Shown: positions 20,700-44,581, numbered from the stretch's first letter. The stretch is 64,000 nucleotides of DNA from an uncultured Gammaproteobacteria bacterium (GCA_938082545.1 CALKCL010000005.1:23677-87676); one strand, 5' to 3'. Numbers and translations: made by a program. The notes: a model not told the origin generated them from the sequence alone.

Positions 20700-20710
20700 T
20701 AAAAAAGCTA

Positions 20711-20739
20711 AAGTGCTCGGCGTTGCCGAGCACTTTTTT
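20711..20739 (+). terminator. Rho-independent terminator
   Basis: AAGTGCTCGGC-gtt-GCCGAGCACTT followed by TTTT. Confidence 0.85.
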
Positions 20740-20915: not shown

Positions 20916-22268
20916 ATGAAAAAAGTTTATCAAAATGCAAACGAGGCTCTAGCTGGCCTACTTAGTGATGGGATGACTATAGCTTCAGGCGGCTTTGGTC
21001 TTTGTGGTATCCCGGAGAACTCCATCGAGACGCTCGCCAACTCGGAAGTGAAAGATCTGACGATAGTAGGGAACAACGCAGGCGTGGATGACTTTGGAAT
21101 GGGGTTGTTACTGGCGACTCATCAAGTGAAAAAAGTCGTGGCTTCTTACGTGGGAGAGAATAAAGAATTTGAACGGCAAGTCCTGGCAAAAGAGGTCCAG
21201 CTTGAGCTAAATCCCCAGGGCACATTAGCAGAGAGGATTCGCGCGGGTGGTGCTGGAATACCTGCGTTTTATACTAAAACTGCTTTTGGAACAGAGTTGG
21301 CAAAAGGAAAAGAAACTAAAGAATTTAATAACGAAAACTACGTTCTTGAAACGGCAATTAAAGCAGATCTCTCATTAGTTAAAGCATGGAAAGGCGACCA
21401 TGAGGGGAACCTAGTTTTCCGTAAAACAGCGCGAAACTTTAACCCCATGATTGCCACATGCGGGGAGATCTGTATTGCTGAAGTGGAAGAACTCGTTGAA
21501 GTAGGGGAGTTAGATCCCGATCAGATACACACTCCAGGTATATATGTTGATCGAATATTTGAAGGCACTAACTACGTTAAACGAATTGAATTCCCGACCA
21601 CCTCGGCTAATGCCGGTGGGCCAGGATCACCGAACAGAGAATTGATGGCTAGAAGGGCGGCAAAAGAACTGCACGATGGCTTCTATGTCAATTTAGGTAT
21701 CGGTATACCGACACTTGTCGCCAACTTCATCGCGGATAACATAAAAGTAACGCTCCAGTCGGAAAATGGTCTTCTCGGAATAGGTCCTTTCCCGGGTGAA
21801 AACGAAATAGACGCTGATCTAGTCAATGCTGGGAAACAAACGATAACCTCAATCCTCGGATCAAGTTTTTTTTCCAGTGCTGACTCCTTCGCGATGATCA
21901 GAGGTGGGCATATAGATATCTCAATACTTGGAGGCTTAGAAGTCGCTGCAAACGGAGACTTAGCTAACTTCATGGTCCCTGGGAAAATGATCAAAGGCCC
22001 TGGTGGCGCAATGGATCTTGTTTCAGGTGTGAAACGGGTAGTTGTTTTACTTGAACATACGGCTAAAGACGGGAGTCCGAAAATCCTAGATCAATGCGCT
22101 TTGCCTGTTACCGGAAAAAACGTTGTTGACCTGATAATAACGGAACTCTGCGTTTTTGAGGTGCTGCCTGATAATCAAGGACTTCTCCTTGTAGAATTAC
22201 AGCCTGGGGTGCAGCTCGAGGAAGTCGTTCAAAAAACTGGCTGTAACTTTAAAACTAAGTCAGACTAG
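20916..22268 (+). CDS. 3-oxoacid CoA-transferase, fused A+B subunits
   Basis: 450 aa. The N half resembles subunit A (ASGGFGLCGIPE) and the C half resembles subunit B with the catalytic SENG motif (LQSENGLLGIGP). Confidence 0.85.
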   Translation: MKKVYQNANEALAGLLSDGMTIASGGFGLCGIPENSIETLANSEVKDLTIVGNNAGVDDFGMGLLLATHQVKKVVASYVGENKEFERQVLAKEVQLELNPQGTLAERIRAGGAGIPAFYTKTAFGTELAKGKETKEFNNENYVLETAIKADLSLVKAWKGDHEGNLVFRKTARNFNPMIATCGEICIAEVEELVEVGELDPDQIHTPGIYVDRIFEGTNYVKRIEFPTTSANAGGPGSPNRELMARRAAKELHDGFYVNLGIGIPTLVANFIADNIKVTLQSENGLLGIGPFPGENEIDADLVNAGKQTITSILGSSFFSSADSFAMIRGGHIDISILGGLEVAANGDLANFMVPGKMIKGPGGAMDLVSGVKRVVVLLEHTAKDGSPKILDQCALPVTGKNVVDLIITELCVFEVLPDNQGLLLVELQPGVQLEEVVQKTGCNFKTKSD

Positions 22269-22348
22269 AGCTCATGACGCCCTGATCACAGCGGTAATGG
22301 CTAAATGTAGCTGCCGTTAAAAAGACTACGTAAAAAGGAGCGAAAGAG

Positions 22349-22645
22349 ATGGGAACAAACCCTGATGATCTGCAATTAATCGAGGAATTCAAAAAGAATC
22401 CTATTGGCCATCATAGTCCAGATTTACAACGATTATTAAACCGCTTCCGGTCCGTTCCAATGGAAAACAAATATTGTCTCGTTGTAATTAAACCGAATCG
22501 AGAGTGGCAGCTTGCAAAAACCACAGGGAAACCTGGGGTCGCTGTAAAACTACTGCAGAAAAAATTCACTAGCCAATCCGAAGCCGAATGGTATGTTTTT
22601 CGAAAACGCTGGAAAAACCTCACCGGCGAAACGTTAAAACCATAG
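22349..22645 (+). CDS. small protein, candidate alpha-like partner of the DMFase-like enzyme (locus 1)
   Basis: 98 aa with a good SD (AAGGAG). It is homologous to ORF 36424..36846 (LQRLLNRFRSVP vs LKRLVDKLRMVP). The position mirrors the dmfA1-dmfA2 order. Confidence 0.55.
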   Translation: MGTNPDDLQLIEEFKKNPIGHHSPDLQRLLNRFRSVPMENKYCLVVIKPNREWQLAKTTGKPGVAVKLLQKKFTSQSEAEWYVFRKRWKNLTGETLKP

Positions 22646-22730
22646 CCAGAGATTGTCTCCATAAAGAAAGCACGTTAATTACCTAAATGTCTACAGTACT
22701 TAAATTGAATAAGGGGAGTGTTTAAAATTC

Positions 22731-24992
22731 ATGAAAATTACAGCCTATGCAGATAAAACAAGTGTCGCACCTGATGAAACTATTAACTTCATGGTCAACT
22801 GTAATGCCAAGGAGTTTAAAGCAGACTTTGTAAAGTTAATTTGCGGAGACATGAATCCAGACGGGCCTGGCTATCAAGAAAAAGTCATCCGAACTAAAGC
22901 AACTGGCACCTACCCAGGCAGAAAGCAGACTATTTATGCCGGATCATTTGTTCAAATCGAAGACAACGAAAAATTTAATCAAATTGAAAGCTTTACTTTA
23001 AAGGCGTTCATTTGGCCAACCACCCCAAATAAAGGGCATCAAACCATTATTAGCAACTGGTCAGAAAAAGATCAAAATGGTATGTCACTGGACATTAGTC
23101 CTAACAACAAAGGTCTGATGTTAACAATAGGTTCAGGATCTAATAAAGTTCAGTGTGTCGTCTCTGGGAAACCATTTTTGGAAAGAGAATGGTATTTTGT
23201 GGCAGCGACCTACAATGCAGCCACCAAGCGAATTACTCTGATTCAAGAGCCTTTGCATACGCACGCAAAAACACGCGACCGAAGTATTAAAAATGAAAAA
23301 GCCAAATTCGTCACGCCACCAAAATCAAATCGTCGGATCACTATTGGCGCGCAATTTAAAAGAACAGACAAAGGTCGCACGGTCTGCCAAAACTACTTCA
23401 ATGGTAAAATTGACAGTCCTCTTGTAGCCGCAAGAGCGCTAACAGCCAACCAAGTAGAACAACTCAAAACGGGCTACGATAAAATTAGAATGTCCAATGA
23501 CGTAGTTGCCGCGTGGGACTTCTCAACAGATATCTCTTCATTAAAAATTTCTGACATTTCTGGAAACAATATCCATGGGAAAGTTGTCAATATGCCAGTG
23601 AAGGCTATGACTGGCTGGAACTGGGATGGGGAAGAAATGAACTGGAAGCATGCGCCGAAACAATATGGTGCGATTCACTTTCACGATGATGATGTTCACG
23701 ATGCGGGCTGGGAAATAGATGTTTCATTGAAGGTCCCCAAGAATCTGAAAAGTGGCCTTTACGCTATCCGGCTCCGCGCCGGTAAAGATCTGACAGATGA
23801 AGACTACGTGCCGTTTGCTATTCTTCCCCCAAGAGGAAAGGTGACGGCTGATATCTGCTTCATCTTGCCCACCGCGACCTATATGGCATATGCCAATGAG
23901 CACATGGGTACCGACTCTCCCATAGCACAGCTACTTGGTGGTCGTCTTGTCGAACACGAAAGACAAGATCTCTACCGTAATGAGCACAGAGAATATGGAG
24001 CTAGTTGCTATGACACTCACACCGACGGCTCAGGGGTCTGCTACTCATCGCGACTTCGACCAATATTAAATATGCGACCAAAATATAAAAGCTGGCTGGG
24101 AGGAGAAGGCTCTACCCTATGGCAATTTAACGCAGACACGCATATTACTAACTGGCTTGAAGCTCAAGGCTATAATTACGATGTCATTACTGATGAAGAA
24201 CTTCACCACGATGGAGTCTGCGCCTTAGAAAAATATCGAGTAGTCCTGTCATCCTCTCACCCTGAGTATCATTCCAAAGAAATGTGGGACGCCATGTCGA
24301 CCTATCAAAAGGGCGGAGGTCGCTTAATGTATCTCGGTGCGAACGGATGGTACTGGCGTATTGCCTTTCATCAAGAAGCCGAAGGCGTCTTAGAAGTCCG
24401 GCGAGCAGAAGGGGGCATACGCGGCTGGGAAGCACAAACAGGAGAATATTATCACTCCTTTACCGGAGAATACGGTGGACTATGGCGACGAAATGGGAGA
24501 GCACCTCAAAAAATTGTTGGTACGGGGTTCACGGCACAAGGGTTTGACATCTCGTCTTACTACAAAAGGAACCCTGACAGTTTCAAAAAACCAGTCAAAT
24601 GGATAATGGATGGCGTCAAAGATGACGAGCTCATTGGTAACTTTGGACTTATTGGCGGAGGTGCTGCGGGACTTGAACTCGATCGTGCTGATACAAAACT
24701 AGGGACACATCCTGATGCATATGTACTCGCATCTTCCGAAGATCACACTGATCTATACTTAGTCGTTTGTGAGGAGCTCTTGATTAATTATCCCGGACTA
24801 GGAGGACAAGAGAACCGTCTCGTTAGAGCAGATCTTGTATTCTACGAGACGGATCAAGGTGGAGGCGTGTTTTCAACCAGTTCTATCGCATGGCCTGGGT
24901 CGCTTTCACATAATAATTATGACAACAACGTGTCAAAAATCACCAAAAACGTGCTTGATCGCTTTGTCGCAGAGGGCCCTCTGCTAGACTAG
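22731..24992 (+). CDS. N,N-dimethylformamidase beta (large) subunit-like protein, paralog 1
   Basis: 753 aa. Blocks GDMNPDGPGYQE, AAWDFS, QYGAIHFHDD, TATYMAYANE, SSRLRPILNMRPKY, SSHPEY, GLIGGGAAGLELDR and YDNNVSKITKNVL match my recollection of the DmfA2 family. Confidence 0.75.
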   Translation: MKITAYADKTSVAPDETINFMVNCNAKEFKADFVKLICGDMNPDGPGYQEKVIRTKATGTYPGRKQTIYAGSFVQIEDNEKFNQIESFTLKAFIWPTTPNKGHQTIISNWSEKDQNGMSLDISPNNKGLMLTIGSGSNKVQCVVSGKPFLEREWYFVAATYNAATKRITLIQEPLHTHAKTRDRSIKNEKAKFVTPPKSNRRITIGAQFKRTDKGRTVCQNYFNGKIDSPLVAARALTANQVEQLKTGYDKIRMSNDVVAAWDFSTDISSLKISDISGNNIHGKVVNMPVKAMTGWNWDGEEMNWKHAPKQYGAIHFHDDDVHDAGWEIDVSLKVPKNLKSGLYAIRLRAGKDLTDEDYVPFAILPPRGKVTADICFILPTATYMAYANEHMGTDSPIAQLLGGRLVEHERQDLYRNEHREYGASCYDTHTDGSGVCYSSRLRPILNMRPKYKSWLGGEGSTLWQFNADTHITNWLEAQGYNYDVITDEELHHDGVCALEKYRVVLSSSHPEYHSKEMWDAMSTYQKGGGRLMYLGANGWYWRIAFHQEAEGVLEVRRAEGGIRGWEAQTGEYYHSFTGEYGGLWRRNGRAPQKIVGTGFTAQGFDISSYYKRNPDSFKKPVKWIMDGVKDDELIGNFGLIGGGAAGLELDRADTKLGTHPDAYVLASSEDHTDLYLVVCEELLINYPGLGGQENRLVRADLVFYETDQGGGVFSTSSIAWPGSLSHNNYDNNVSKITKNVLDRFVAEGPLLD

Positions 24993-25262: not shown

Positions 25263-25380
25263 GTCTGAGAAAACTTGTCCTCCCCTCAAGTTCTCAGACT
25301 GCCCAATTAGCAATTCGACTCCCCTCGAATCTAGCTGGGATTCTCCCCTAAACCGGACTTTCATAGTCCGGTTTTTTTTT
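25263..25380 (+). ncRNA. candidate sRNA B (~118 nt), a homolog of unit A
   Basis: No ATG inside. Two hairpins present C-rich loops (GUCUGAG..CUUG-UCCUCCCCU-CAAG..CUCAGAC and AUUCGA-CUCCCC-UCGAAU). The terminator is AAACCGGACT-ttcat-AGTCCGGTTT plus a T run (25350-25380). Confidence 0.45.
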
Positions 25381-26114: not shown

Positions 26115-27125
26115 ATGCAAATCATAAAGCGCCGTGAGTCTCAAAAATATGCGTTCGACAATCGGGATGAACCTGCGTTACATGTCATAGAGGGGGAAAT
26201 ATTTCAGGTCGAAACAGACGATGCTCTCTCTGGAATGATTGATGATGACAGCGATGACCCGTTCATCCAAGGATTCGACGGGAAACACTTTTCAGAACTA
26301 GCAAAGGCAACTCCAGGTCTATTCAACCCAGTAGTAGGGCCAATTCACATCAAAGGATGCAAAGCAGGCGATGTCCTGGCAGTACATATCGATTGGGTTG
26401 ATCCGTGGAGATATGGCTTTTCTGGAATTTTACCGCGTATCGGACCGCTTGGAGACTCTCTTCGATATCAAGATTGTGCGGATGGACACGTACAGGTGAT
26501 AGAGCATTTGGCTGGTCCTAGCGGATTTACACGCGATGGCACTGCAAAGTACTCAGAAAATCTCAGCTGGCCCCTGGAACCCTTTATAGGGACTTTGGCT
26601 ACCGCGCCAGAACGCGAGGTGTTCACCTCCGTTCTAGGACAAGGCCCATTCGGTGGAAATATTGACTGTCGAGATATATGTGCGGGACACACAATCTACC
26701 TGAATTCCTACAATGATGGGGGACTCCTTTACATAGGGGATGTTCATGGAGGACAAGGAGATACTGAGTTTACTGGCATCGCTGATGAGACTCGCGCTAC
26801 GGTGCAGTTGTCATGCACCGTGATACCCAATAAGCGGAATCCCTGCGTGAGAATAGAAAAACCGGATAGCATCGTAGCAGTTGGCATCAACTTACCTATG
26901 GAACATGCTGTCTATGATGCAACGGACAATCTAATGCAGTGGCTCGCTGATGAGTATGACGTCCCTCCCAAAGATCTATATATAAGAATGTCATGTGACC
27001 CAGCGTTTAGAATCCGCACTTATCAAATGGTTCGGTTACAAACTATTCAGCACGTTGTAGGTGCAGAATATCCTAAGAGTCGCCTTTTTAACGCCATAGA
27101 TTCTCCGACTAAAGTTAACTCATGA
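26115..27125 (+). CDS. acetamidase/formamidase (FmdA/AmdA) family protein
   Basis: 336 aa with PVVGPIHIKGCKAGDVLAVHI and the GDVHGGQGDTE block. Confidence 0.75.
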   Translation: MQIIKRRESQKYAFDNRDEPALHVIEGEIFQVETDDALSGMIDDDSDDPFIQGFDGKHFSELAKATPGLFNPVVGPIHIKGCKAGDVLAVHIDWVDPWRYGFSGILPRIGPLGDSLRYQDCADGHVQVIEHLAGPSGFTRDGTAKYSENLSWPLEPFIGTLATAPEREVFTSVLGQGPFGGNIDCRDICAGHTIYLNSYNDGGLLYIGDVHGGQGDTEFTGIADETRATVQLSCTVIPNKRNPCVRIEKPDSIVAVGINLPMEHAVYDATDNLMQWLADEYDVPPKDLYIRMSCDPAFRIRTYQMVRLQTIQHVVGAEYPKSRLFNAIDSPTKVNS

Positions 27126-27964
27126 GAATTGGGGTATCTCTACCTATTCGTGAACTCAAGAACGACCTCGCAGCAATAGTAGCGTTTGCACAACTCGCAG
27201 AGGAATTAGGCTTCACTCATTTAAGAATACCAGATCAAATACTGAGGCCGAACAACCAACATCTTCATGAACCATTAATATTAATGGGATACCTCGCCGC
27301 CCTCACCGAGAAGATCGAACTGGCCCCATCTGTAATCGTCTTACCTTTGAGAGAGACAATTCTCCTCGCAAAACAAACTGCGGAAATCGATATATTATCA
27401 GGAGGTCGACTTAGACTTGGCATTGGAGTGGGTGGGAGTGAAGAGGAATATCAGTTCGTGGGAGAGGACTATAAAACTCGTGGAAAGAAATGCGACGAAC
27501 AAATGAAACTACTAAAGGAACTGTGGTGCAAAGAAAGTGTCGCATTTATAGGCGATTGGCATGATATCTCGAAGGCTGGAATTAACCCGCTACCTATACA
27601 ACGGCCTATACCCATGTGGATCGGCGCGAAGGCATCGCCAAGACAGAGTGTCATTAATAGAATTGGTACCTTATCCGATGGATGGTTTGTATTATGCACT
27701 CCAGAAGAATTTCCAAAACTTAACATGGAAATTAATGATATCGCCAAAAAAAGCGGTCGCGACCCCAAAGAAATTGGCACTGAAGCAGGGGTCGCAGTAG
27801 TAGGCCCACGCGAGCATGAATGGCAAAGCCGAGTGAAAGTGTGGCAAAGCAAAGGATTGTCGCACCTATGCATCAGGACCCTAGGAGGAGGGCTTTCTCC
27901 AAAGCAACACCTTGATAAGTTGCGGGAAATTTCAACCGAACTCGAAGAAATAAACGCTTATTAA
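27122..27964 (+). CDS. LLM-class (luciferase-like) flavin/deazaflavin-dependent oxidoreductase
   Basis: 280 aa with GGRLRLGIGVGGSEEEY. It has an ATGA overlap with the formamidase gene. Confidence 0.75.
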   Translation: MRIGVSLPIRELKNDLAAIVAFAQLAEELGFTHLRIPDQILRPNNQHLHEPLILMGYLAALTEKIELAPSVIVLPLRETILLAKQTAEIDILSGGRLRLGIGVGGSEEEYQFVGEDYKTRGKKCDEQMKLLKELWCKESVAFIGDWHDISKAGINPLPIQRPIPMWIGAKASPRQSVINRIGTLSDGWFVLCTPEEFPKLNMEINDIAKKSGRDPKEIGTEAGVAVVGPREHEWQSRVKVWQSKGLSHLCIRTLGGGLSPKQHLDKLREISTELEEINAY

Positions 27965-31797: not shown

Positions 31798-33201
31798 ATG
31801 GGAAACATAGATGATCTATTGCTAGAAACCATACAAACTATAGCACCGATGATCGAATCTAAAACCATCTCTCCGGTCGAGCTGACCGAAGCAATGTTGA
31901 ACAGGATCGAATCGGTCGACAAAAGCATCGGAAGCTATGCGCTTGTTACACCAGATCTTGCCATGGACGAAGCACGACTAGCTGAATCACAAATCATTGC
32001 TGGCAACTATCTTGGTGCACTTCATGGGGTGCCAATCGCACTAAAGGATCTTATTGACGTTGCTAACGTTCCAACTGAGTGCGCTTCGACTATCCTGCGG
32101 GGAAACATTCCACGCACAAATGCCACAGTCGTTGAAAAACTCAAATCAGCAGGAGCGATTACTTTAGGTAAATTAAACCTGACAGAATTTGCTCTGTACG
32201 GCTACCATCCCGAGTTTACCCCACCTGCCAATCCTTGGAACCTTGAGCATTGGTCAGGTGTATCGTCCTCAGGTTCAGGAGCCGCTACCGCTGCATCACT
32301 TTGCTACGCGAGCCTAGGAACCGACACTGGCGGTTCAATTCGTTTCCCTTCCGCCGCATGTGGCGTCGTGGGAATAAAAGCTACTTTTGGAAAAATCAGT
32401 CGACATGGTGTTTTCCCATTATCTGATACGCTGGATCACACAGGACCAATTGCTCGCTGTGTTAAGGATGCTGCGCTTATGCTAAGCATCCTCGAAGGCA
32501 GAGATCCAAAGGACCCGTCGACAAGAACAGACCCTATAAGCGACTATTTCGGCGCAACCTGCAAAGGACTCACCGATTTTAAAATTGGGCTGGATCCTAC
32601 CTATTGCTCAAAAGGATGTGATACGGAAATGTCAGCGGCAACGTTCACCGCAGTCGACCTTCTCAAAAGCGCAGGCGCAACCATAGTTCCGCTCGACGCG
32701 CCTGATCTAGAAAATGCCGCAAGACATTGGTTAAGTATATGCTCAGTTGACGCTCTCATGAGTCACAAAGAGCTTTTCCCAGAGAGAAGAGAGGAGTACG
32801 GGCCAGTCTTCAGGGCACTGTTAGAGCATGGAGAAACTGTGTCTTCAGTTGAGTATGCAGAAGCCACACGTCAACGCCAATATACTACTGCCCTCATCAA
32901 TGACCTATTATCGAAAGCGGACGTCATCGTTTGTCCTGCAATGCCAACGATTGCTGGACCTCAATCTGATTACCCCCCTCAGCAAGTCGCCGCCGTCGAA
33001 GACATTGGACCATTAGTGAAATTCGCGGCACCAACAAATTTTTCTGGCCATCCAAGTATCACGATACCTAATGGATTTAGCGCAAGTGGAATGCCTACTG
33101 GGATGCAGTTTATTGGTCGACATGGAGATGAGGCGTCCATCATTCGAGCGGCTGCCGCCTACGAGGAACTGACGGATTGGCAAAAACACAAACCCTTATA
33201 G
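31798..33201 (+). CDS. amidase-signature (GatA-like) amidase
   Basis: 467 aa with GVSSSGSGAATAA and GTDTGGSIRFPSAACGVVGIKATFG. Confidence 0.9.
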   Translation: MGNIDDLLLETIQTIAPMIESKTISPVELTEAMLNRIESVDKSIGSYALVTPDLAMDEARLAESQIIAGNYLGALHGVPIALKDLIDVANVPTECASTILRGNIPRTNATVVEKLKSAGAITLGKLNLTEFALYGYHPEFTPPANPWNLEHWSGVSSSGSGAATAASLCYASLGTDTGGSIRFPSAACGVVGIKATFGKISRHGVFPLSDTLDHTGPIARCVKDAALMLSILEGRDPKDPSTRTDPISDYFGATCKGLTDFKIGLDPTYCSKGCDTEMSAATFTAVDLLKSAGATIVPLDAPDLENAARHWLSICSVDALMSHKELFPERREEYGPVFRALLEHGETVSSVEYAEATRQRQYTTALINDLLSKADVIVCPAMPTIAGPQSDYPPQQVAAVEDIGPLVKFAAPTNFSGHPSITIPNGFSASGMPTGMQFIGRHGDEASIIRAAAAYEELTDWQKHKPL

Positions 33202-35051: not shown

Positions 35052-36254
35052 TCAACTGAAACGTTTAATAATCTGCTTACCAAGCGCCATCATGTGAACC
35101 TGGTCCGGCCCATCAGCCTGACGACACCAGCGAGCATAGTTAAAGGCTTCAGCCATAAAGTAGTCACCTGTCAACCCACCAGCACCATGGATCTGCATAC
35201 AACGGTCAATAACCTTCTGAGCCATGAGCGGAACAGTTATCTTAGCTGCCGCAATCATATCACTGGCCTCTCGGGCCCCTACTTCGTCCATACGAGATGC
35301 CGTTTTCATAGTAAGTAAACGAGCCTGCTCAATCTCGCAAAAGCTTACCGCAATATCCTCTCTAACGGACTGATGTTCAGCAAGCATTTTACCAAAAGTC
35401 GAACGAGAGACTGACCGCCGGCAAGCGTACTCTAGAGCACGTTGAGCAGCTCCAATAAGGCGCATACAATGATGTATCCGACCAGGGCCGAGTCTGCCTT
35501 GTGCTATTTCAAACCCGCGTCCCTCACCCAAAAGCATATTTTCAGCTGGAACTCTTACATCATCAAACACTACTTCAGCGTGGCCTTGAGGTGCGTCGTC
35601 ATAACCTAAAGTGGTCAGTGGACGGGTGACTATCATACCAGGAGCCCCTTTCGGCACCAGAATTTGGCTTTGCTGTAAGTGTCGATTAGGGTTCTCTGGG
35701 TCAGACTTCCCCATAACAATAAAAATTCCTGTGCGCTCATTCATTGCGCCAGTAATAAACCATTTTTTTCCATTGATTACATATTCAGAGCCATCACGCA
35801 TAATTGAAGTCTGGACATTAGTGGCATCGCTAGATGCCACGTCAGGCTCTGTCATCGCAAAAGATGAGCGAATATCTCCAGCCAAAAGAGGCTCCAACCA
35901 TTGCTTCTTCTGCTCTTCAGTTCCATATTTCATGAACACTTCCATATTGCCAGTGTCCGGAGCATTGCAGTTGAAGACCTCAGCGCTCCAATAGACTCGA
36001 CCCATGATTTCAGCCAGAGGAGCATAATGAGCATTACTTAACCCACCAAATTTCTCAGGGACAAAAAGATTCCACAAACCTTGCTCTTTTGCTTTTGCTT
36101 TTAGTTCTTCTACGACCGACATAGTAACGAAACGATCTTTTAAACCCGCTAACTCTTCGTGATACCGAGCCTCATTCGGATAGACATGCTCAGTCATAAA
36201 CTGTTCAAGTTGCAGGTTCAGGTTTTCGGGACTCTCGTTGATATTTGCGTACAT
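35052..36254 (-). CDS. acyl-CoA dehydrogenase
   Basis: 400 aa with [15 protein letters not shown] and the C-terminal QIHGAGG block. Confidence 0.9.
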
Positions 36255-36423: not shown

Positions 36424-36846
36424 ATGCCGATACCAAAAAAACCCACCGCACTGCAGCAAAACTACGCCTTAATGGCAGTAGATGACTATGACATGAGAAT
36501 GTATGTGGTCGATCACTTGAAAGATAAAGACAAAAGAAATGCGCTTATAGCAGAGCATGCGAAATTCCCTAGAGGAGGAGCGACTCAACCGGGAAGCCCC
36601 CCTCCACTCCAGAGCCCAACGTTAAAGAGACTAGTAGATAAGTTACGAATGGTGCCTCAAACCGGGAAACACACCATCGTAGAAACAATTCCATGGAAGG
36701 AATATGCCATCGGCATCTTACCTGGCGCCCGCGGGAAACCAGTAAAAATAACTAGCGAAAAATATAACTCTAGAGATGATGCCAACCACGCTATTTTTTG
36801 TAAACGATTAAAGGCTTTGTGCGCTCATTACGACATCCGCATGTAG
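36424..36846 (+). CDS. small protein, candidate alpha-like partner of the DMFase-like enzyme (locus 2)
   Basis: 140 aa (~15-16 kDa). The C-terminal ~70 aa are homologous to ORF 22349..22645. It lies immediately upstream of the large subunit gene. Confidence 0.55.
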   Translation: MPIPKKPTALQQNYALMAVDDYDMRMYVVDHLKDKDKRNALIAEHAKFPRGGATQPGSPPPLQSPTLKRLVDKLRMVPQTGKHTIVETIPWKEYAIGILPGARGKPVKITSEKYNSRDDANHAIFCKRLKALCAHYDIRM

Positions 36847-36860
36847 TTCAGAGGAAAACC

Positions 36861-39269
36861 ATGAAACAAGACTCAATGTTACGCATAACCGGCTATTCCG
36901 ATAAATGCTCAGTTACACCAGGAGATGAGATCACATTTTATGTTCATAGTGAATTTGGTGAGTCGTACCAATCTGATATCGTAAGACTTATCAACGGAGA
37001 CACCAATCCTGAAGGCCCTGGATTCAAGGAAAAACTATTCCGAACCAGTGTTAATGCAAAGTACAAAGGTGAGAACCAGCCTTTAATGGCAGGAAGTTAC
37101 CTGCTTGCCCCACAAAGTGATCATTTTGACCTAGAAAGCCTAACGCTGTGTGCCTATATTTACCCCACAACTCCAACGGTCGATACAGAAGGAGTTGCGG
37201 TCGGAGAACAAGCACTGCTCTCGAAATGGGATGCAGATAAGAAAAAAGGGTACGGATTATTCATCAATAAAGAAGGTGAGCTTGAATTTCGTTTAGGGAA
37301 TGGCAGAGGAAAAGTAGAAAGCTTTAGCACCCGTAAACCCATGATGAGAAAAATTTGGTACAAAGTCATGGTCAGTTTCGATGCGTCTACTGGAAAAGGG
37401 CTCATCTGCCAGATCCCTTATCTGACTGCGACTAATGGCGGTCATGGACCAAGTATGCTCCATCCCCGCTCTGACACGGAAGCTGAACGTAAATTTACCG
37501 CTAAAAACGGCGCAGCCAAAACACATGAAAGCCCCTTCACGATGGCCGCTAGCTGCAAGTCTTCGGAATGTGATCGGCAGGTGTTTGACGGACATTACAA
37601 CCATCTGGAACAGCCTTGGGATATCCCCGAGCATACTGAAAAATACAATGGGAAAATCGATAGACCACGAGTCGCAAATCGCGCGCTAAATAGAGCTGAA
37701 ATAGAGCTGATTCTAGGTGCACCTAGAATGGAGGCCATACCAACAGAACTAAGGTCTTCTATCGTAGCTGCTTGGGATTTTAGCGCTAATATTTCAGAAA
37801 ATGCTGCGTCCACGCACATTGTAGATGCGGGTCCCCATCGACTACATGCTGTTGGAATAAATCTCCCAGTCCGGGGAACACCAGGTCATAACTGGTCCTC
37901 CCACTTCATGAGCTTCATCCATGGGCCTCAAGAGTACGGCGCAATACATTTTCACGATGAAACTGTGGATGATGCGCGTTGGAAGCCAACATTTACGCTA
38001 AAAATCCCCGAACGCATGGTCAGTGGAGTCTATGCTGCTCGCCTCAGGGTCAAAGGGAAATCAACTCCAGATCATGAAGACTATATCCCATTTTTCGTAC
38101 GTCCACCTAAGGGCACAACGACTGCGAAAATTGCTCTAGTCATGCCGACTCACAGTTACATGGCCTACGCGAACGATAACTTAAGCGTTAACTCCGTAGT
38201 AGCACAATTATTAACAGGACAGGTGCCACTCCTGCAACCAAGCGACTTATTACTTAATCAAGAGCGCGGATACGGACTAGGGACGTATGCGTCCTATCGA
38301 GACGGCTGGGGAGTCAACGTGTCTTCTCGTCTGCGTCCGATCCTCAACATGAGGCCTAAGTATCTGCATGTGCTCTCGCCATCGCTTTGGCAGTTCAACG
38401 CAGATTTACATCTCGTTGACTGGTTGCATGAACTTAAGTATGACGTAGATATTATTACTGACGAAGACGTGCAAAGAGAAGGTGTGACGCTTCTAAACCA
38501 ATATCCCATAGTCTTAACAGGGCACCATCCGGAGTATGTCTCTGAAGAGGCAATGGACGCCTATCATGACTACCAGCTGCAAGGCGGTCGTTTTCTATAT
38601 CTGGCAGCTAATGGCTTCTATTGGATCACTGTGCCGCACCCCGAAAATCCCAACATCATCGAGGTAAGAAAAGGGGATAACGGGACTCGAGCATGGACTA
38701 TTAACCCTGGCGAATACTGTAATGCCTTCGATGGAAAGCATGGCGGCTTATGGCGAGTCCGAGGACGAGCTATGAGCAAGCTACTCGGCGTCACTTTCAC
38801 TTCTTTTGGCCTCACATATTCTTCCTACTATCGCCGCGCGCCGGATAGCAATCTGCCTGAGTGCCAATGGATAATGAAAGGCTTAAGTGCTGACGAGCCT
38901 ATTGGAAACTTTGGCTTAGTAGGTGGAGGTGCTGCAGGTCTTGAACTCGATCGATACGATCTAGAACTGGGCACGCCTCACAGAGCGTATCTATTAGCTC
39001 ACTCTGAGGGGCATAACGATATCTTTGTATCAGTAACTGAAGAATCGACGTTTAATGCCAGAGGCTATACCCAAGGAGGAACGGGCGACAACAATCCTTG
39101 GACACGCGCAGATATCGTCTACTATAAGACACCGAACGACGGGGCAGTTTTTTCTGTCGGTTCGATGTCATGGTGTGGCTCATTGCAGCACAATGATTAC
39201 GACAACAATGTCTCTCAAATCATGCAAAATGTTCTCAATGGTTTTCTAAAACCAGGCACATTGCCATGA
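36861..39269 (+). CDS. N,N-dimethylformamidase beta (large) subunit-like protein, paralog 2
   Basis: ~802 aa. I prefer ATG 36861 (GAGGA SD; MKQDSMLRITGYSDK aligns with MKITAYADK of paralog 1). It shares the blocks AAWDFS, QYGAIHFHDE, HSYMAYAND, SSRLRPILNMRPKY, GHHPEY, GLVGGGAAGLELDR and YDNNVSQIMQNVL. Confidence 0.75.
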   Translation: MKQDSMLRITGYSDKCSVTPGDEITFYVHSEFGESYQSDIVRLINGDTNPEGPGFKEKLFRTSVNAKYKGENQPLMAGSYLLAPQSDHFDLESLTLCAYIYPTTPTVDTEGVAVGEQALLSKWDADKKKGYGLFINKEGELEFRLGNGRGKVESFSTRKPMMRKIWYKVMVSFDASTGKGLICQIPYLTATNGGHGPSMLHPRSDTEAERKFTAKNGAAKTHESPFTMAASCKSSECDRQVFDGHYNHLEQPWDIPEHTEKYNGKIDRPRVANRALNRAEIELILGAPRMEAIPTELRSSIVAAWDFSANISENAASTHIVDAGPHRLHAVGINLPVRGTPGHNWSSHFMSFIHGPQEYGAIHFHDETVDDARWKPTFTLKIPERMVSGVYAARLRVKGKSTPDHEDYIPFFVRPPKGTTTAKIALVMPTHSYMAYANDNLSVNSVVAQLLTGQVPLLQPSDLLLNQERGYGLGTYASYRDGWGVNVSSRLRPILNMRPKYLHVLSPSLWQFNADLHLVDWLHELKYDVDIITDEDVQREGVTLLNQYPIVLTGHHPEYVSEEAMDAYHDYQLQGGRFLYLAANGFYWITVPHPENPNIIEVRKGDNGTRAWTINPGEYCNAFDGKHGGLWRVRGRAMSKLLGVTFTSFGLTYSSYYRRAPDSNLPECQWIMKGLSADEPIGNFGLVGGGAAGLELDRYDLELGTPHRAYLLAHSEGHNDIFVSVTEESTFNARGYTQGGTGDNNPWTRADIVYYKTPNDGAVFSVGSMSWCGSLQHNDYDNNVSQIMQNVLNGFLKPGTLP

Positions 39270-39682
39270 GTGAAGTAAATGACGAGGTTCCTCTTGATCG
39301 GGATCACTTTTGGTGGATACACCCTGCGCTTCGAGGCCAGCAGTCGCTAGACGGCTCTGCGGCTGGAGCATTGCCTTGGAGATGGGAGAAATCCGCAACT
39401 GCCAGTGATGCTGATCCCGTTGAAACAATCGATCCAGCAGGACCTTATGCAGATTTTGCCAAGCTACTCTATAAACTCAATGGATATAAACCTGGACCAG
39501 TTACTGGTTGGTATATTGTCCTGTCCCCAGAAAAAGACAAGTTTGCAGTCGGACAGCTATGTGTCGATCCCAATATCCCAGTTGTCTTGTTTGAAGATAA
39601 TGTCTATTCAACTGAAGCCGAAGCGAGAAAAGTTGCCACTGAGTTAAAAAAAGTAAACCCTGGCCTTATACATACAAGTTAG
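39266..39682 (+). CDS. hypothetical 138-aa protein translationally coupled to the DMFase-like large subunit
   Basis: ATGA start/stop overlap at 39266-39269. The C-terminal segment (GWYIVLSPEKDKFAVG...VYSTEAEARKVATELKKV) weakly resembles the C-termini of the two small upstream proteins. Confidence 0.5.
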   Translation: MSEVNDEVPLDRDHFWWIHPALRGQQSLDGSAAGALPWRWEKSATASDADPVETIDPAGPYADFAKLLYKLNGYKPGPVTGWYIVLSPEKDKFAVGQLCVDPNIPVVLFEDNVYSTEAEARKVATELKKVNPGLIHTS

Positions 39683-39732: not shown

Positions 39733-40986
39733 ATGAATATTTCTAAGCGTCTTCTGGCGATGGTGGCACTGGTGGTTGCCGGTGAAATGATATTCAGTCT
39801 ACCATTCCATCTACCCCGATACCTCCGCCCTTCAGTACTTGAGGGGTTTAATCTAACCAACTCTGAGTTAGGCGACATATTTGCAGTGTATGGCGTCACA
39901 GCGATGCTGGCATACTTCCCCGGCGGATTAATAGCCGACAAATTCAACCCAAAAATCCTGATCATTATTTCACTTGTAGCTACAGCGATTGGTGGTATCT
40001 ATCTCGCCACCTTCCCTGGTGTTGTAGGACTCGCAATTCTCTATGCGTACTGGGGAATAACTACCATTTTCCTATTCTGGGCGGGCTTGATGAAATCTAC
40101 CCGAGAGTGGGGCGGTGATGAAGCTCAGGGGAGAGCATTTGGATTCCTAGAAGGGGGCAGAGGGTTAGCTGCAGCCATTTTTGCATCAATCGCGGTCTGG
40201 CTATTCGCACAAGGAATCCCAACTCTGGAACTAATCAATCAAGAAGATAGGCGGCAGGCATTATCGAGTGTTATATTTTTATACACTGGTCTTACATTCC
40301 TTGCCGCAATTAGCGTCGCTATTTGGCTGCCTAATAATGAAAAAAAAGACACTTATAAGCCGCTAAAGACAAGTGTCTTGAAAATGCTACTGAAGCTCGA
40401 AATATGGCTGATTGCCGTTGTCATCACTTGTGCATACTGCGGCTATAAAGGATTAGACAATTACGCTTTATATGCTCACCAAGTGCTAGGAATGAGCGAA
40501 GTCGAATCAGCTTCCTTCATTTCTAAAACTGCCTATTTACGGATCTTTGCCGCCGTATCTGCAGGTCTGCTGGCGGATAGAATTCAAGCTAATAAAACTC
40601 TAATCTTATTATTTTTCACTCTCTTCCTGAGCTATAGCTTTTTAGGGATCTGGGGCGGACCTGAAGAGCTAATGTACTTTATTATCATTAACGTAATTAT
40701 TACTCTATTGGCCGTTTTTGCGCTCCGTGGGGTATATTTTGCGATGCTTGAAGAAACCAAAATACCGGCGAGGAATACGGGATCTGCTGTCGGATTAGTA
40801 TCAGTAGTGGGCTATACCCCAGACATTTTTCTGGCACCTATTGGGGGCCGAATTCTGGATGCTTCGCCAGGCGCAGAAGGTCACTTAAATTATTTCTGGC
40901 TGCTTTCAGCCATTTCTCTTATAGGAGTCATTGCTGCAGTCGCTTTATACTTCTGTAACAAGAATTTAACTAGGGGAAAAGAATGA
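39733..40986 (+). CDS. MFS transporter
   Basis: 417 aa, ~12 TM helices. Confidence 0.8.
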   Translation: MNISKRLLAMVALVVAGEMIFSLPFHLPRYLRPSVLEGFNLTNSELGDIFAVYGVTAMLAYFPGGLIADKFNPKILIIISLVATAIGGIYLATFPGVVGLAILYAYWGITTIFLFWAGLMKSTREWGGDEAQGRAFGFLEGGRGLAAAIFASIAVWLFAQGIPTLELINQEDRRQALSSVIFLYTGLTFLAAISVAIWLPNNEKKDTYKPLKTSVLKMLLKLEIWLIAVVITCAYCGYKGLDNYALYAHQVLGMSEVESASFISKTAYLRIFAAVSAGLLADRIQANKTLILLFFTLFLSYSFLGIWGGPEELMYFIIINVIITLLAVFALRGVYFAMLEETKIPARNTGSAVGLVSVVGYTPDIFLAPIGGRILDASPGAEGHLNYFWLLSAISLIGVIAAVALYFCNKNLTRGKE

Positions 40987-41713
40987 GAAAAAAAGTATGC
41001 CTTATAGTGGGGGCAGGACAGGGACTAGGAAGAGCTCTGGCCCAGAAATTTGCGAACGAAGGCTATCATCTTAACTTAGTGTCGCGGACTCTAAGTGGAA
41101 GTGAGCTAGCGCTAAAGGCCGCACATTCGGCATTCCTAGGGGGGACCATCGTCATGTAACCGCTGACGCTGCTAAGCCGGAGGAATTAGAAAAAACTCTA
41201 GCTGAAGCAGTTGCTTCGCATGGCACTCCCGAAATTTTTATTTATAACCCTCGTGGCCGATACCAATTAAGAGATCCTTTGCAGATATCCTACGCAGAAA
41301 TCAGCGATACCCTCAACCTAGAAGTGGTAGGGGCCCTCGCGTCGGCAAAGGCCATAATTCCAAGGATGCTAGACAACAAAAAAGGAACCATTATTTTTTC
41401 AAGTGCGACAGCTGCTTTTAGAGGATCAGGAACCAATCCACTATATTCTATCGGAAAGTTCGGACTTCGCGGATTGTCTCAAAGTCTCGCCAAAGCATAC
41501 AGTGCTAAAGGGCTACATGTTGCACATGTTCGGCTCGACTGCACTTTAGACGTCCCTGATATCAGAGACTGGATGGGGGATACCTTCAAAATTGAAGAAA
41601 CGAGCAATGTAGATGACGTAGCACAGTCTTACTGGTGGCTTCACCAACAACCAGGATCCGCATGGAGTAATGAATTGGAACTCAGACCTTATAGTGAGAA
41701 CTGGACATTTTAG
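40983..41713 (+). pseudogene. SDR-family oxidoreductase interrupted by a frameshift in a G6 run (41139-41144)
   Basis: Frame 1 reads MRKKVCLIVGAGQGLGRALA...AFLGGTIVM* (stop 41157-41159). Another frame continues GDHRHVTADAAKPEEL...IIFSSATAAF...YSIGKFGLRGL to 41713. Adding one G restores a ~243-aa SDR. Confidence 0.7.
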
Positions 41714-42587: not shown

Positions 42588-43400
42588 ATGCAGATCGGTA
42601 TCTCTATCAACAATATGGGGCCTCTATCTACAAAGGAAGTGATCACCCGGCAGGCTCTTAAAGCTGAACAATCGGGGTTAGATCATATATGGGTACTCGA
42701 TCATATCGCTATTCCTCCTGATCAATCAGAAGGATCTGGAGGACGATACGTAGATCCCTTGGCTACACTCGCGTTTCTAAGCGGCATTACAAGCACAATA
42801 AAATTAGGCACTTCTGTTTTAGTGCTCCCCTATCGTCCCGCATTAGCTACTGCTAAATGGGTCGCTTCTATCCAAGAGCTCTCTTCAGGAAGATTAATTC
42901 TTGGTGTAGGTGTTGGATGGATGGAAGCTGAATTCATTGTGACTGATGCATCACTGAAGACCAGAGGCTCTGTAACTAATGAAACCATTGAGTTCTTCAT
43001 GGAGTGCTTCGCAAATGATATTGTTTCATACAAAGACCAACAGTTTATTTTTAGTCCGCGCCCAAAGCGACCTCCAATTTTGATTGGGGGAAATCAGAAT
43101 GCCGCAATCCAACGGGTAATGAATTACGGAGACGGTTGGATGCCTATGATAAAGGATCATGATTCACTCATAAGCGAATGCCAAGATTTACAGCGAATGA
43201 GAAGAGAAGAAGGTAAAGGCAAAGCAATTATCATCCCTTTACTGGCTTTAGATTTCTCTGATCTTTCAAAAGTCGTGGATCAGTTGAGCGCGCTCAAAGA
43301 GGCGGGATGCACGGGTATAGAACATTTTCAGTCGTCCAAAACAGAATACGACTTTAATTTAACGGTAGATTATCTCTCAGAGATTAAAAGTAAATTGTAG
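42588..43400 (+). CDS. LLM-class (luciferase-like) oxidoreductase, a paralog of 27122..27964
   Basis: 270 aa with SGRLILGVGVGWMEAEF. Confidence 0.75.
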   Translation: MQIGISINNMGPLSTKEVITRQALKAEQSGLDHIWVLDHIAIPPDQSEGSGGRYVDPLATLAFLSGITSTIKLGTSVLVLPYRPALATAKWVASIQELSSGRLILGVGVGWMEAEFIVTDASLKTRGSVTNETIEFFMECFANDIVSYKDQQFIFSPRPKRPPILIGGNQNAAIQRVMNYGDGWMPMIKDHDSLISECQDLQRMRREEGKGKAIIIPLLALDFSDLSKVVDQLSALKEAGCTGIEHFQSSKTEYDFNLTVDYLSEIKSKL

Positions 43401-43408
43401 AAAATATT

Positions 43409-44581
43409 ATGAATTTAATAAAAAAAATAGTAGGTAAGAACAAGGACCATGCCGCTTGGCGTCAAATAATACACGCACATCCGGAGCTTGCTTATCAAGA
43501 GCATGTCACAGCGCAATTTGTTGCTGACAAACTAGAATCTTTTGGCATCGCTATCGTAAAAGGCCTCGGAAAAACGGGTGTAGTTGGCACGATAAAATCT
43601 GGGTCCAGTGACAGGTCAATCGGGCTACGGGCAGACATGGATGCTTTACCTCTAACAGAGATGAACACTTTTAGTCATCGTTCAAAGAATATGGGAGTAA
43701 TGCATGCATGCGGACATGATGGGCACACCGCAATGCTTCTAGCGGCTGCACAGCACCTATCAGCACACCAAGACTTTGATGGCACAGTCCACTTTATTTT
43801 TCAGCCTGCTGAAGAAGGAGAGGCCGGTGCAAAAGCCATGATGGATGATGGACTTTTTACAGATTTTCCTATGGAAGCTGTTTATGGAATTCATAATTGG
43901 CCGGGACTTCCCGTTGGGGAAATGGCAATGAGAAAAGGCCCCATAATGGCTGCGATGGATCTGTTTGAAATTAAGGTTATCGGGAAAGGTGGTCATGCAG
44001 CTTTACCACATTTAGTGATTGACCCTATACAAGTTGGGACACAAATCGTACAGGCTTGGCAAACGATTGTATCCCGTAACGTAAAACCAACCGACCCTGC
44101 CGTACTTTCGGTCACACAGTTCCATGGAGGAGATACAGATGCATGGGCGGTAGTTCCTGAGGAAATAACAATAAGAGGAACAGTTAGAACATTCTCAACG
44201 GACACAAAAGAGCTTATAAAATCGCGTATGGAGAAGATCGCACTTGGAATCTGTCAGGCACATGACTGCAAGTTAGAATGGTGGTATGACGAGCGATTTC
44301 CACCGACTGTCAATTCAGACGAGGAAACTGACGTGGCAGCACAAGCCGCTATCTCAATTTGTGGTGCTGAAAACGTCAATACAAATGTCGAAATGGTTAC
44401 CGGATCAGAAGATTTCGGGTATATGCTTGAAGAAAAACCAGGGTGCTATGCATTCATAGGTAACGGACTCGGAGATGGCGGATGCCTACTCCATAGTCCT
44501 CATTTTGATTTTAACGATGAAGTAATTCCCGTAGGTGCCAGTTACTGGGTGGAGCTAGTGAATCAAGTATTAAAGAAATAA
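43409..44581 (+). CDS. M20-family amidohydrolase (hippurate hydrolase / N-acyl-amino-acid amidohydrolase-like)
   Basis: 390 aa with IHAHPELAYQE, LRADMDALP and HACGHDGHTAMLL. Confidence 0.9.
   Translation: MNLIKKIVGKNKDHAAWRQIIHAHPELAYQEHVTAQFVADKLESFGIAIVKGLGKTGVVGTIKSGSSDRSIGLRADMDALPLTEMNTFSHRSKNMGVMHACGHDGHTAMLLAAAQHLSAHQDFDGTVHFIFQPAEEGEAGAKAMMDDGLFTDFPMEAVYGIHNWPGLPVGEMAMRKGPIMAAMDLFEIKVIGKGGHAALPHLVIDPIQVGTQIVQAWQTIVSRNVKPTDPAVLSVTQFHGGDTDAWAVVPEEITIRGTVRTFSTDTKELIKSRMEKIALGICQAHDCKLEWWYDERFPPTVNSDEETDVAAQAAISICGAENVNTNVEMVTGSEDFGYMLEEKPGCYAFIGNGLGDGGCLLHSPHFDFNDEVIPVGASYWVELVNQVLKK

Follow-up and report, generated by a model that had tools for sequence, protein, structure and literature searches.

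The N,N-dimethylformamidase (DMFase) of Paracoccus sp. DMF (DmfA1/DmfA2, structure 6lvb, EC 3.5.1.56) binds its Fe(III) through Tyr399, Tyr440 and Glu521, loses all activity in the mutants H519A, N547A and E657A, and has a residue, Phe693, that reaches from the neighbouring large subunit into the active site and is the proposed limiter of substrate size (PMC7686228). The compound after which the enzyme is named, N,N-dimethylformamide (DMF), has been described as a solvent of synthetic origin without any known natural occurrence (bioRxiv 10.1101/2019.12.17.879908). The DMFase fold with its two-Tyr-one-Glu iron site is known from one enzyme acting on a man-made solvent, and homologs are very common in genomes: the large subunit (K03418) occurs in 924 of 20,762 complete genomes (4.5%), with the small subunit recognised in only 41 (bioRxiv 10.1101/2021.03.18.435917). 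A further two-subunit enzyme of the family, the acetamiprid amidase AceAB of Pigmentiphaga sp. D-2, does not hydrolyse DMF (PMC11573777). Here we describe two loci of this family in a 64-kb stretch of DNA from an uncultured Gammaproteobacteria bacterium (GCA_938082545.1, CALKCL010000005.1:23677-87676; one strand), which is called the window below and of which about 55 open reading frames (ORFs) were annotated. Each locus joins a small (alpha) gene to a large (beta) gene, and locus 2 has in addition a third gene, alpha', which is a diverged paralog of the small-subunit gene. The reading that we prefer, with a probability of about 0.7, is that both loci encode cytoplasmic, heteromeric, mononuclear-Fe(III) amidohydrolases of the DMFase family for two different small natural N-substituted amides.

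The genes of the two loci, in window coordinates, are these:

alpha-1, 22349..22645, + strand: short homolog of the DMFase small subunit, 98 aa, without the N-terminal wedge helix
beta-1, 22731..24992, + strand: predicted catalytic large subunit, 753 aa, with Ig-like, LamG/pentraxin and DMFA2_C domains
alpha-2, 36424..36846, + strand: full-length homolog of the DMFase small subunit, 140 aa
beta-2, 36861..39269, + strand: predicted catalytic large subunit, 802 aa from the ATG at 36861
alpha', 39266..39682, + strand: diverged small-subunit paralog, 138 aa, its ATG overlapping the beta-2 TGA (ATGA)

A preliminary description of this DNA had claimed two paralogous small-plus-large loci, and both sets of ORFs are confirmed: beta-1 and beta-2 are 42% identical end to end (BLASTP E 0.0), alpha-1 and alpha-2 share 33% identity across 72 aa (BLASTP E 3e-13), and the family profiles of the two small proteins match each other with an hhalign probability of 99.7% (E 4e-27). 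The sequence blocks that it listed as common to the two large proteins are all present, except that locus 2 reads EYGAIHFHD and not QYGAIHFHD; the range that it gave for the second copy, ending at 39682, places the loci correctly but passes over the third, alpha-like ORF (39266-39682) that lies inside it. Alpha-1 is preceded by an AAGGAG Shine-Dalgarno sequence and can be about 103 aa long at most, because its stop-free frame opens only at 22334; a spacer of 85 nt separates it from beta-1. Mechanical ORF listing gives beta-2 as 36819-39269, that is, 816 aa from a GTG, and the length of about 802 aa proposed earlier is supported by the ATG at 36861, which has the Shine-Dalgarno sequence AGAGGAAA and sits 3' of the alpha-2 stop codon.

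Both large subunits belong to the DMFase family over practically their whole length. Pfam finds PF20254 (DMFA2_C) C-terminal to the LamG domain, with E 1.1e-97 in beta-1 and E 3.8e-86 in beta-2, and the LamG/pentraxin domain itself (PF13385) with E 8e-12 and 4e-9, respectively; in beta-2 the LamG domain carries insertions of about 50 aa in all. None of the five window proteins has a model in NCBIfam, which returned sub-threshold LamG-type noise only. Aligned to the large subunit of the Paracoccus enzyme (6lvb_A), beta-1 matches through its residues 3-750 (E 3.4e-186, about 42-43% identity) and beta-2 through its residues 7-799 (E 3e-167, about 40% identity). Second among the solved structures comes N-acetyl-(R)-beta-phenylalanine acylase (8huy), which beta-1 matches with E 2e-156 and beta-2 with E 4e-119; beta-1 scores 525 bits to it as against 624 to the DMFase, and beta-2 402 as against 561. 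The residues expected to bind iron and to catalyse, mapped by alignment and followed in brackets by their Paracoccus counterparts, are:

beta-1, predicted Fe ligands: Y387 (Tyr399), Y427 (Tyr440), E512 (Glu521)
beta-1, predicted catalytic residues: H510 (His519), N538 (Asn547), E649 (Glu657)
beta-2, predicted Fe ligands: Y436 (Tyr399), Y476 (Tyr440), E558 (Glu521)
beta-2, predicted catalytic residues: H556 (His519), N584 (Asn547), E695 (Glu657)

All six positions are invariant in 118 relatives, bar one sequence with Asp at the position of Asn547. The gate position, Phe693 in Paracoccus, is occupied by Ile685 in beta-1, with Ile or Val in 60 of the 78 sequences of its clade (clade 1) and Phe in 5 of them, and by Phe731 in beta-2, with Phe in 39 of the 40 sequences of clade 2.

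The small ORFs match the solved alpha subunit of the DMFase (6lvb_B) in sequence searches, alpha-1 with E 3.8e-5 (residues 9-94 aligned to chain residues 43-130) and alpha-2 with E 9e-6. The local copy of Pfam holds no family for either of them; precomputed annotation from a newer release assigns the alpha-2 homologs (P0196-P0240) to PF26354. The AlphaFold model of alpha-2 (predicted local distance difference test, pLDDT, 85), which has helices at 14-33 and 35-47, superposes over its full length on 6lvv_B/6lvb_B (Foldseek E 1e-6, probability 1.00, TM 0.62-0.70), and no other Foldseek match has E <0.1. The wedge helix of DMFase alpha, an N-terminal helix that in the solved structure is inserted between the two large subunits, is present in this model and absent from alpha-1, which aligns only from chain residue 43 onwards. 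The same holds across clade 1, where the alpha proteins are uniformly short (median 101 aa) and only about 26 residues precede the SxxLxR motif, where clade 2 has about 64 and Paracoccus about 58; from this short length and the few residues ahead of the motif, clade-1 alpha is expected to lack the wedging N-terminal helix and is, as far as its sequence tells, a truncated, core-only version of the subunit.

When the large-subunit alignment was scanned against one genome per species and the best 80 loci were kept (50-97% identity to beta-1), 69 of them proved to have an alpha-1 homolog as the gene just before the large one and in the same orientation. The remaining 11 comprise two loci cut by contig ends and nine without any small ORF. 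These nine (L046, L057, L059, L067, L069, L070, L072, L073 and L075) are 50-53% identical to beta-1, with no small-subunit ORF detected on either side, and are perhaps a subclade of single-chain enzymes comparable to the beta-phenylalanine acylase. In one alphaproteobacterial metagenome-assembled genome (MAG; locus L068, 5638-8238, CBDAPE010000015.1) one reading frame without a stop codon spans both the small and the large part, a natural alpha-beta fusion that supports a functional link between the two genes. The preliminary description had named three points on which it could fail, namely similarity to the DMFase beta subunit, the metal ligands, and the constancy of the small ORFs beside the large genes; the full-length 6lvb_A matches, the ligands retained in both copies, the 6lvb_B matches and the 69 loci with an upstream alpha all bear it out.

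Alpha' is a real and conserved gene. Its homologs form 25 sequence clusters (37-98% identity), every one of them annotated as 'hypothetical' and lacking any Pfam domain, and the alpha' profile retrieves only 51 clusters from 1.84 billion representative proteins. A metagenome scan with beta-2 yielded 50 loci, all apparently from aquatic metagenomes and mostly marine. Every one of these with upstream DNA has an alpha-2-like ORF upstream, and 36 of the 40 with room downstream have an alpha'-like ORF immediately 3' of the large gene, the other four being the three most distant loci (52-54% identity) and a fragment (L116). No alpha'-like ORF was found downstream of locus 1. Two marine contigs carry a tandem arrangement, with a second alpha-type set directly after the first in one of them (L099, 6388-6945) and a second set that includes its own alpha' in the other (L110, 2627-3121 and 5512-5955).

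BLASTP detects no similarity of alpha' to alpha-1 or alpha-2, and neither single-sequence nor profile searches of PDB sequences with alpha' return a match. Compared as families, alpha' and clade-1 alpha match over 53 columns with an hhalign probability of 98.1% and E 7e-14; in controls with reversed or column-shuffled profiles E is 0.02 or higher. Run against the 12,263 ORFs of the 80 genome loci, the alpha' hidden Markov model (HMM) picks out only canonical upstream alpha ORFs, in 47 of the loci and with E values as low as 5e-13, and the canonical alpha HMM also scores many of the proteins fetched by the alpha' profile from the whole library. It is this match to the more diverse clade-1 alpha family, together with the HMM matches, that establishes the homology. 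The AlphaFold model of alpha' (pLDDT 71 overall, 80-87 in the C-terminal half) has a helix at 62-71, strands at 77-89, 92-100 and 106-114, and a helix at 117-130; in the alpha-2 model a helix at 65-75, strands at 83-89, 93-98 and 108-114, and a helix at 117-135 follow one another in the same order and in nearly the same register. We conclude that alpha' is a diverged small-subunit paralog that shares with alpha the C-terminal helix-strand-strand-strand-helix core. Its N-terminal half, rich in Trp and marked by the motif DHxWWxHP...LPWRW, has no counterpart in alpha. From the strict synteny and the overlap of its start with the beta-2 stop we infer that alpha' is a third subunit of the enzyme.

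The family to which these loci belong is large. A word-indexed protein search returns more than 4000 proteins at E <=1e-50, many of them 55-77% identical to beta-1, from MAGs of Gammaproteobacteria, Alphaproteobacteria, Binatia and others, and these matches go by the database names 'N,N-dimethylformamidase beta subunit family domain-containing protein' or 'LamG domain-containing protein'. The preliminary description, which took DMFase to be characterised only from a few soil methylotrophs, therefore overstated its rarity: the family is populous and labelled, and AceAB and the acylase have been characterised with other substrates. In a neighbour-joining tree whose one characterised sequence is that of the Paracoccus enzyme, this enzyme lies outside both window clades, and it and the clades of beta-1 and beta-2 form three branches with about 40-44% mutual identity (42.3% between 6lvb_A and beta-1, 39.8% between 6lvb_A and beta-2). 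As the branches are separate, the two window copies are ancient paralogs of different subfamilies and not the outcome of a recent duplication, and on this coarse comparison, with its single characterised sequence, neither appears to be an ortholog of the DMF-degrading enzyme. An exact-sequence look-up of beta-1 in the assembly collection gave no hit. The nearest genome loci, both 97% identical, lie in the MAGs UBA4457 and Saanich Inlet SI072_bin20, labelled 'Proteobacteria bacterium'; locus 2 is matched by marine metagenome contigs at 96-99% identity, and the relatives at 70-77% are labelled Gammaproteobacteria, consistent with the gammaproteobacterial host suggested earlier. That genes of this kind are expressed in the sea follows from Pacific metaproteomes, which contain DmfA-annotated proteins of Alpha- and Gammaproteobacteria (PMC9477243).

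By homology to the Paracoccus enzyme, each locus would make an (alpha beta)2-type iron amidohydrolase with a buried two-Tyr-one-Glu iron site in its beta chain. A water molecule bound to Fe(III) and helped by the conserved Glu would attack the amide carbonyl, with the conserved Asn stabilising the oxyanion (PMC7686228), and the stable C-N amide bond would be hydrolysed to an amine and a carboxylate. The alpha chain would be required for folding and stability and form part of the substrate entrance. Locus 1 would then represent the minimal alpha-beta form, with an adjacent CoA-transferase that could activate the acid product to a CoA thioester, and locus 2 a three-gene alpha-beta-alpha' form in which alpha' would be translationally coupled to beta-2.

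The surroundings of the two loci include the following features:

20710-20736: strong terminator-like hairpin, upstream boundary of the CoA-transferase/alpha-1/beta-1 group
20916..22268, + strand: fused 3-oxoacid CoA-transferase (A and B in a single chain; PF01144 E 3e-123, TIGR02428/02429 above cut-offs)
25350..25374, + strand: terminator-like hairpin, a 10-bp stem followed by a T-run, closing locus 1 (consensus match only)
35052..36254, - strand: acyl-CoA dehydrogenase, divergent from locus 2 (Pfam Acyl-CoA_dh N, M and C domains)
39733..40986, + strand: major facilitator superfamily (MFS) transporter, candidate substrate importer (PF07690 E 4e-29)
43409..44581, + strand: M20D-type amidohydrolase (PF01546, PF07687; TIGR01891 at 360 bits against a cut-off of 154)

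The CoA-transferase gene ends 80 nt before alpha-1 and is probably co-transcribed with locus 1. It is a lineage-specific neighbour, kept only in L001, L002 and L042 of the 80 genome loci, the near-identical MAGs and one further locus; for the neighbours of locus 1 in general, conservation stops at the two MAGs with 97% identity. Downstream of locus 2 come the MFS transporter, short-chain dehydrogenase/reductase (SDR) genes, a luciferase-like monooxygenase (LLM)-class oxidoreductase, the M20D amidohydrolase and a SnoaL-like protein. Here the setting is better kept: the acyl-CoA dehydrogenase holds the same position in 10 relatives of at least 70% identity, the MFS gene lies directly 3' of alpha' in 11, and the M20D gene occurs in 9, directly after the MFS gene in L087, L088 and L091 (70% identity), so that all three stay with the alpha-beta-alpha' core down to 70% identity. 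Between the MFS gene and an intact SDR gene sits a second SDR gene that is split into two frames on the + strand, 40983-41159 (58 aa, with the Rossmann glycine motif) and 41279-41713 (144 aa); the longer piece, which recurs in 7 relatives, corresponds to no more than the C-terminal half of adh_short, and the split gene looks like a frameshifted pseudogene or an assembly error. Three more amide-bond hydrolases are found nearby, namely an FmdA/AmdA-like protein (26115-27125), an amidase-signature enzyme (31798-33201) and the M20D protein (43409-44581), as are two paralogous TIGR03619-type LLM oxidoreductases (27122-27964 and 42588-43400), and the 20 kb around both loci has the look of an organic-nitrogen catabolic neighbourhood.

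Taken as a whole, the window is ordinary chromosome. Its GC content, read in 2-kb steps, is uniform at 41-48%, and the housekeeping genes ychF, pth, rplY, prs, ispE, lolB, hemA, prfA and prmC lie at 45-54 kb; a signature of horizontal transfer was considered and rejected, GC being even across the window. Rfam gave no match to RNAs or riboswitches in 20-46 kb. As the preliminary description had stated for methylamine genes, no methylamine, dimethylamine or formate-oxidation gene is present among the roughly 55 annotated ORFs.

The relatives offer further settings. A second subclade of locus 2 is mostly low in GC (32-44% in 13 of 14 loci) and lies beside a Urt/Liv-type ATP-binding cassette (ABC) transporter and a flotillin gene; the low-GC marine relatives flanked by both are L090, L092-L095, L100, L101, L103, L106, L125, L126 and L128. 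This setting matches the flotillin-associated rhodopsin cluster of Pelagibacterales and HIMB59, in which an 'N,N-dimethylformamidase' has been recorded (PMC10308929). Within the beta-1 clade, too, no neighbour is commoner than a Urt/Liv-type transporter (26 of 80 loci), and such a transporter is the sole neighbour that recurs across the family; it is absent from the 64-kb window. In 11 loci of the beta-1 clade, mostly from Binatia MAGs, a 2-oxoglutarate/Fe(II) oxygenase gene lies close 3' of the large gene, and in one of the relatives (L028, 8239-9291) it follows the large gene directly.

What the two enzymes hydrolyse is best approached by asking first whether they might simply be dimethylformamidases, converting DMF or N-methylformamide (NMF) to formate and dimethylamine or methylamine. 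The full conservation of the catalytic residues and of the two-subunit architecture would suit this, as would the database name 'N,N-dimethylformamidase' of close relatives and, for locus 2, the retained Phe693 gate and full-length alpha. We nevertheless judge it improbable. The sole solved and characterised DMFase is 40-43% identical to the window proteins, which fall into clades apart from it; dimethylamine, methylamine and formate-oxidation genes are missing from the 64 kb; the gate is mostly Ile or Val in clade 1 (60 of 78, with Phe in 5); AceAB is similar to the DMFase and yet has no activity on DMF (PMC11573777); and these clades are widespread in open-ocean metagenomes, whereas DMF is synthetic. 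Because the clades are distant, amine-oxidation genes are absent from the window, DMF is synthetic and the habitat is the open ocean, and because the same fold serves AceAB, which leaves DMF untouched, and an acylase for N-acetyl-beta-phenylalanine, substrates other than DMF appear more likely. Those of the two window enzymes would differ from one another, as had been suggested earlier. That acylase raises a further alternative, in which both enzymes would be N-acyl-amino-acid or beta-amino-acid acylases that deacylate N-acetylated or N-formylated amino compounds. It is the second-best solved relative of both large subunits (8huy, E 2e-156 and 4e-119), and the M20D protein near locus 2 resembles N-acetyl-diaminobutyrate deacetylase and carboxypeptidase CpsA; but the DMFase outscores it for beta-1 and beta-2 alike (624 against 525 bits and 561 against 402 bits), and the acylase entries are single-chain where the window loci keep a conserved alpha gene, so we give this alternative only a slight chance.

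Iron amidohydrolases of the DMFase family for two natural amides remain our preferred reading, and several points that weigh against it or against its parts have to be set beside it. Locus 2, with its full-length alpha and Phe gate, is compatible with activity on NMF and DMF. Outside the alpha/beta(/alpha') core, gene neighbourhoods lack conservation across the family, so that context says little about the substrate: Urt/Liv-type transporters, which recur in relatives, point faintly to amides that are small and polar, at locus 2 an acyl or amino-acid-like moiety is hinted at by the acyl-CoA dehydrogenase and the M20D amidohydrolase, and the CoA-transferase of locus 1 hints at an acid product activated to a CoA thioester. 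Binding of alpha' to beta-2 is deduced purely from gene order and the ATGA overlap, and homology to alpha, read from the sequences, does not prove it. Foldseek with the whole alpha' model (pLDDT 71) returns nothing at E <0.3 and does not find 6lvb_B, and against the less diverse alpha-2 clade the alpha' family matches weakly, with an hhalign E of 1.6e-5 or 0.061 depending on the alignments. The missing structural match to the solved alpha, the latter of these values and the N-terminal half without a counterpart in alpha are what one would expect if alpha' were an unrelated accessory, such as a chaperone, regulator or metal-delivery factor, that merely shares the operon. This strikes us as rather unlikely in view of the clade-1 match (E 7e-14, probability 98%, clean negative controls), the restriction of the alpha' HMM hits to canonical alpha ORFs (47 loci, out of 12,263 ORFs), an order of core elements equal to that of alpha-2, and a strictly conserved position in which the start of alpha' overlaps the beta-2 stop. 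We put forward, as a tentative proposal, that the marine locus-2 clade could be a three-component iron amidase for an abundant natural amide of the dissolved organic nitrogen pool, with alpha' remodelling the substrate entrance or the oligomer interface; such an enzyme would be one of low-GC oceanic genomes that resemble streamlined bacterioplankton and of DmfA-positive ocean metaproteomes.

What is new here is that the two copies stand for separate subfamilies in which an alpha partner is conserved, that clade 1 has a core-only alpha, and that a marine clade possesses a conserved second alpha-like gene, an architecture absent from the papers searched; neither a natural substrate nor a third subunit is the subject of any paper that our literature searches brought up. 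As well-defined representatives of two subfamilies in a single genome, the two loci lend themselves to the search for substrates that, once found, would explain what the family did before DMF existed. They might also reveal how bacterioplankton set amines or ammonium free from stable amides; if the three-component reading is true, the locus-2 enzyme would be a missing step in marine nitrogen remineralisation. The practical value, in new amidases for biocatalysis or bioremediation, is modest.

Set against the characterised systems, the window loci come closest to DmfA1/DmfA2 of Paracoccus sp. DMF, with which they share the domain architecture of the large subunit, the six essential residues and a small alpha gene directly upstream of both large genes. 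They differ from it in lying, over 64 kb, apart from any dimethylamine or methylamine catabolism, in forming separate clades at 40-43% identity, and in details peculiar to each locus: alpha-1 lacks the N-terminal wedge helix of about 35 residues and beta-1 has Ile in place of the gate Phe693, whereas locus 2 has a LamG domain longer by about 50 aa and an extra alpha-like gene downstream. The hosts differ too, an uncultured marine proteobacterium in the case of the window and a wastewater or soil methylotroph in that of the known DMFase. AceAB, compared here by its description, shares the alpha-plus-beta architecture and acts on a synthetic insecticide (PMC11573777), which makes it a precedent for other substrates within a two-subunit enzyme. 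The N-acetyl-(R)-beta-phenylalanine acylase (8huy/8i5a), a full-length homolog that stands farther from the window proteins than the DMFase does, is entered with a single kind of chain and no small subunit, unlike both window loci, which keep alpha; its homology indicates that the DMFase-type fold accepts N-acyl substrates larger than formamides.

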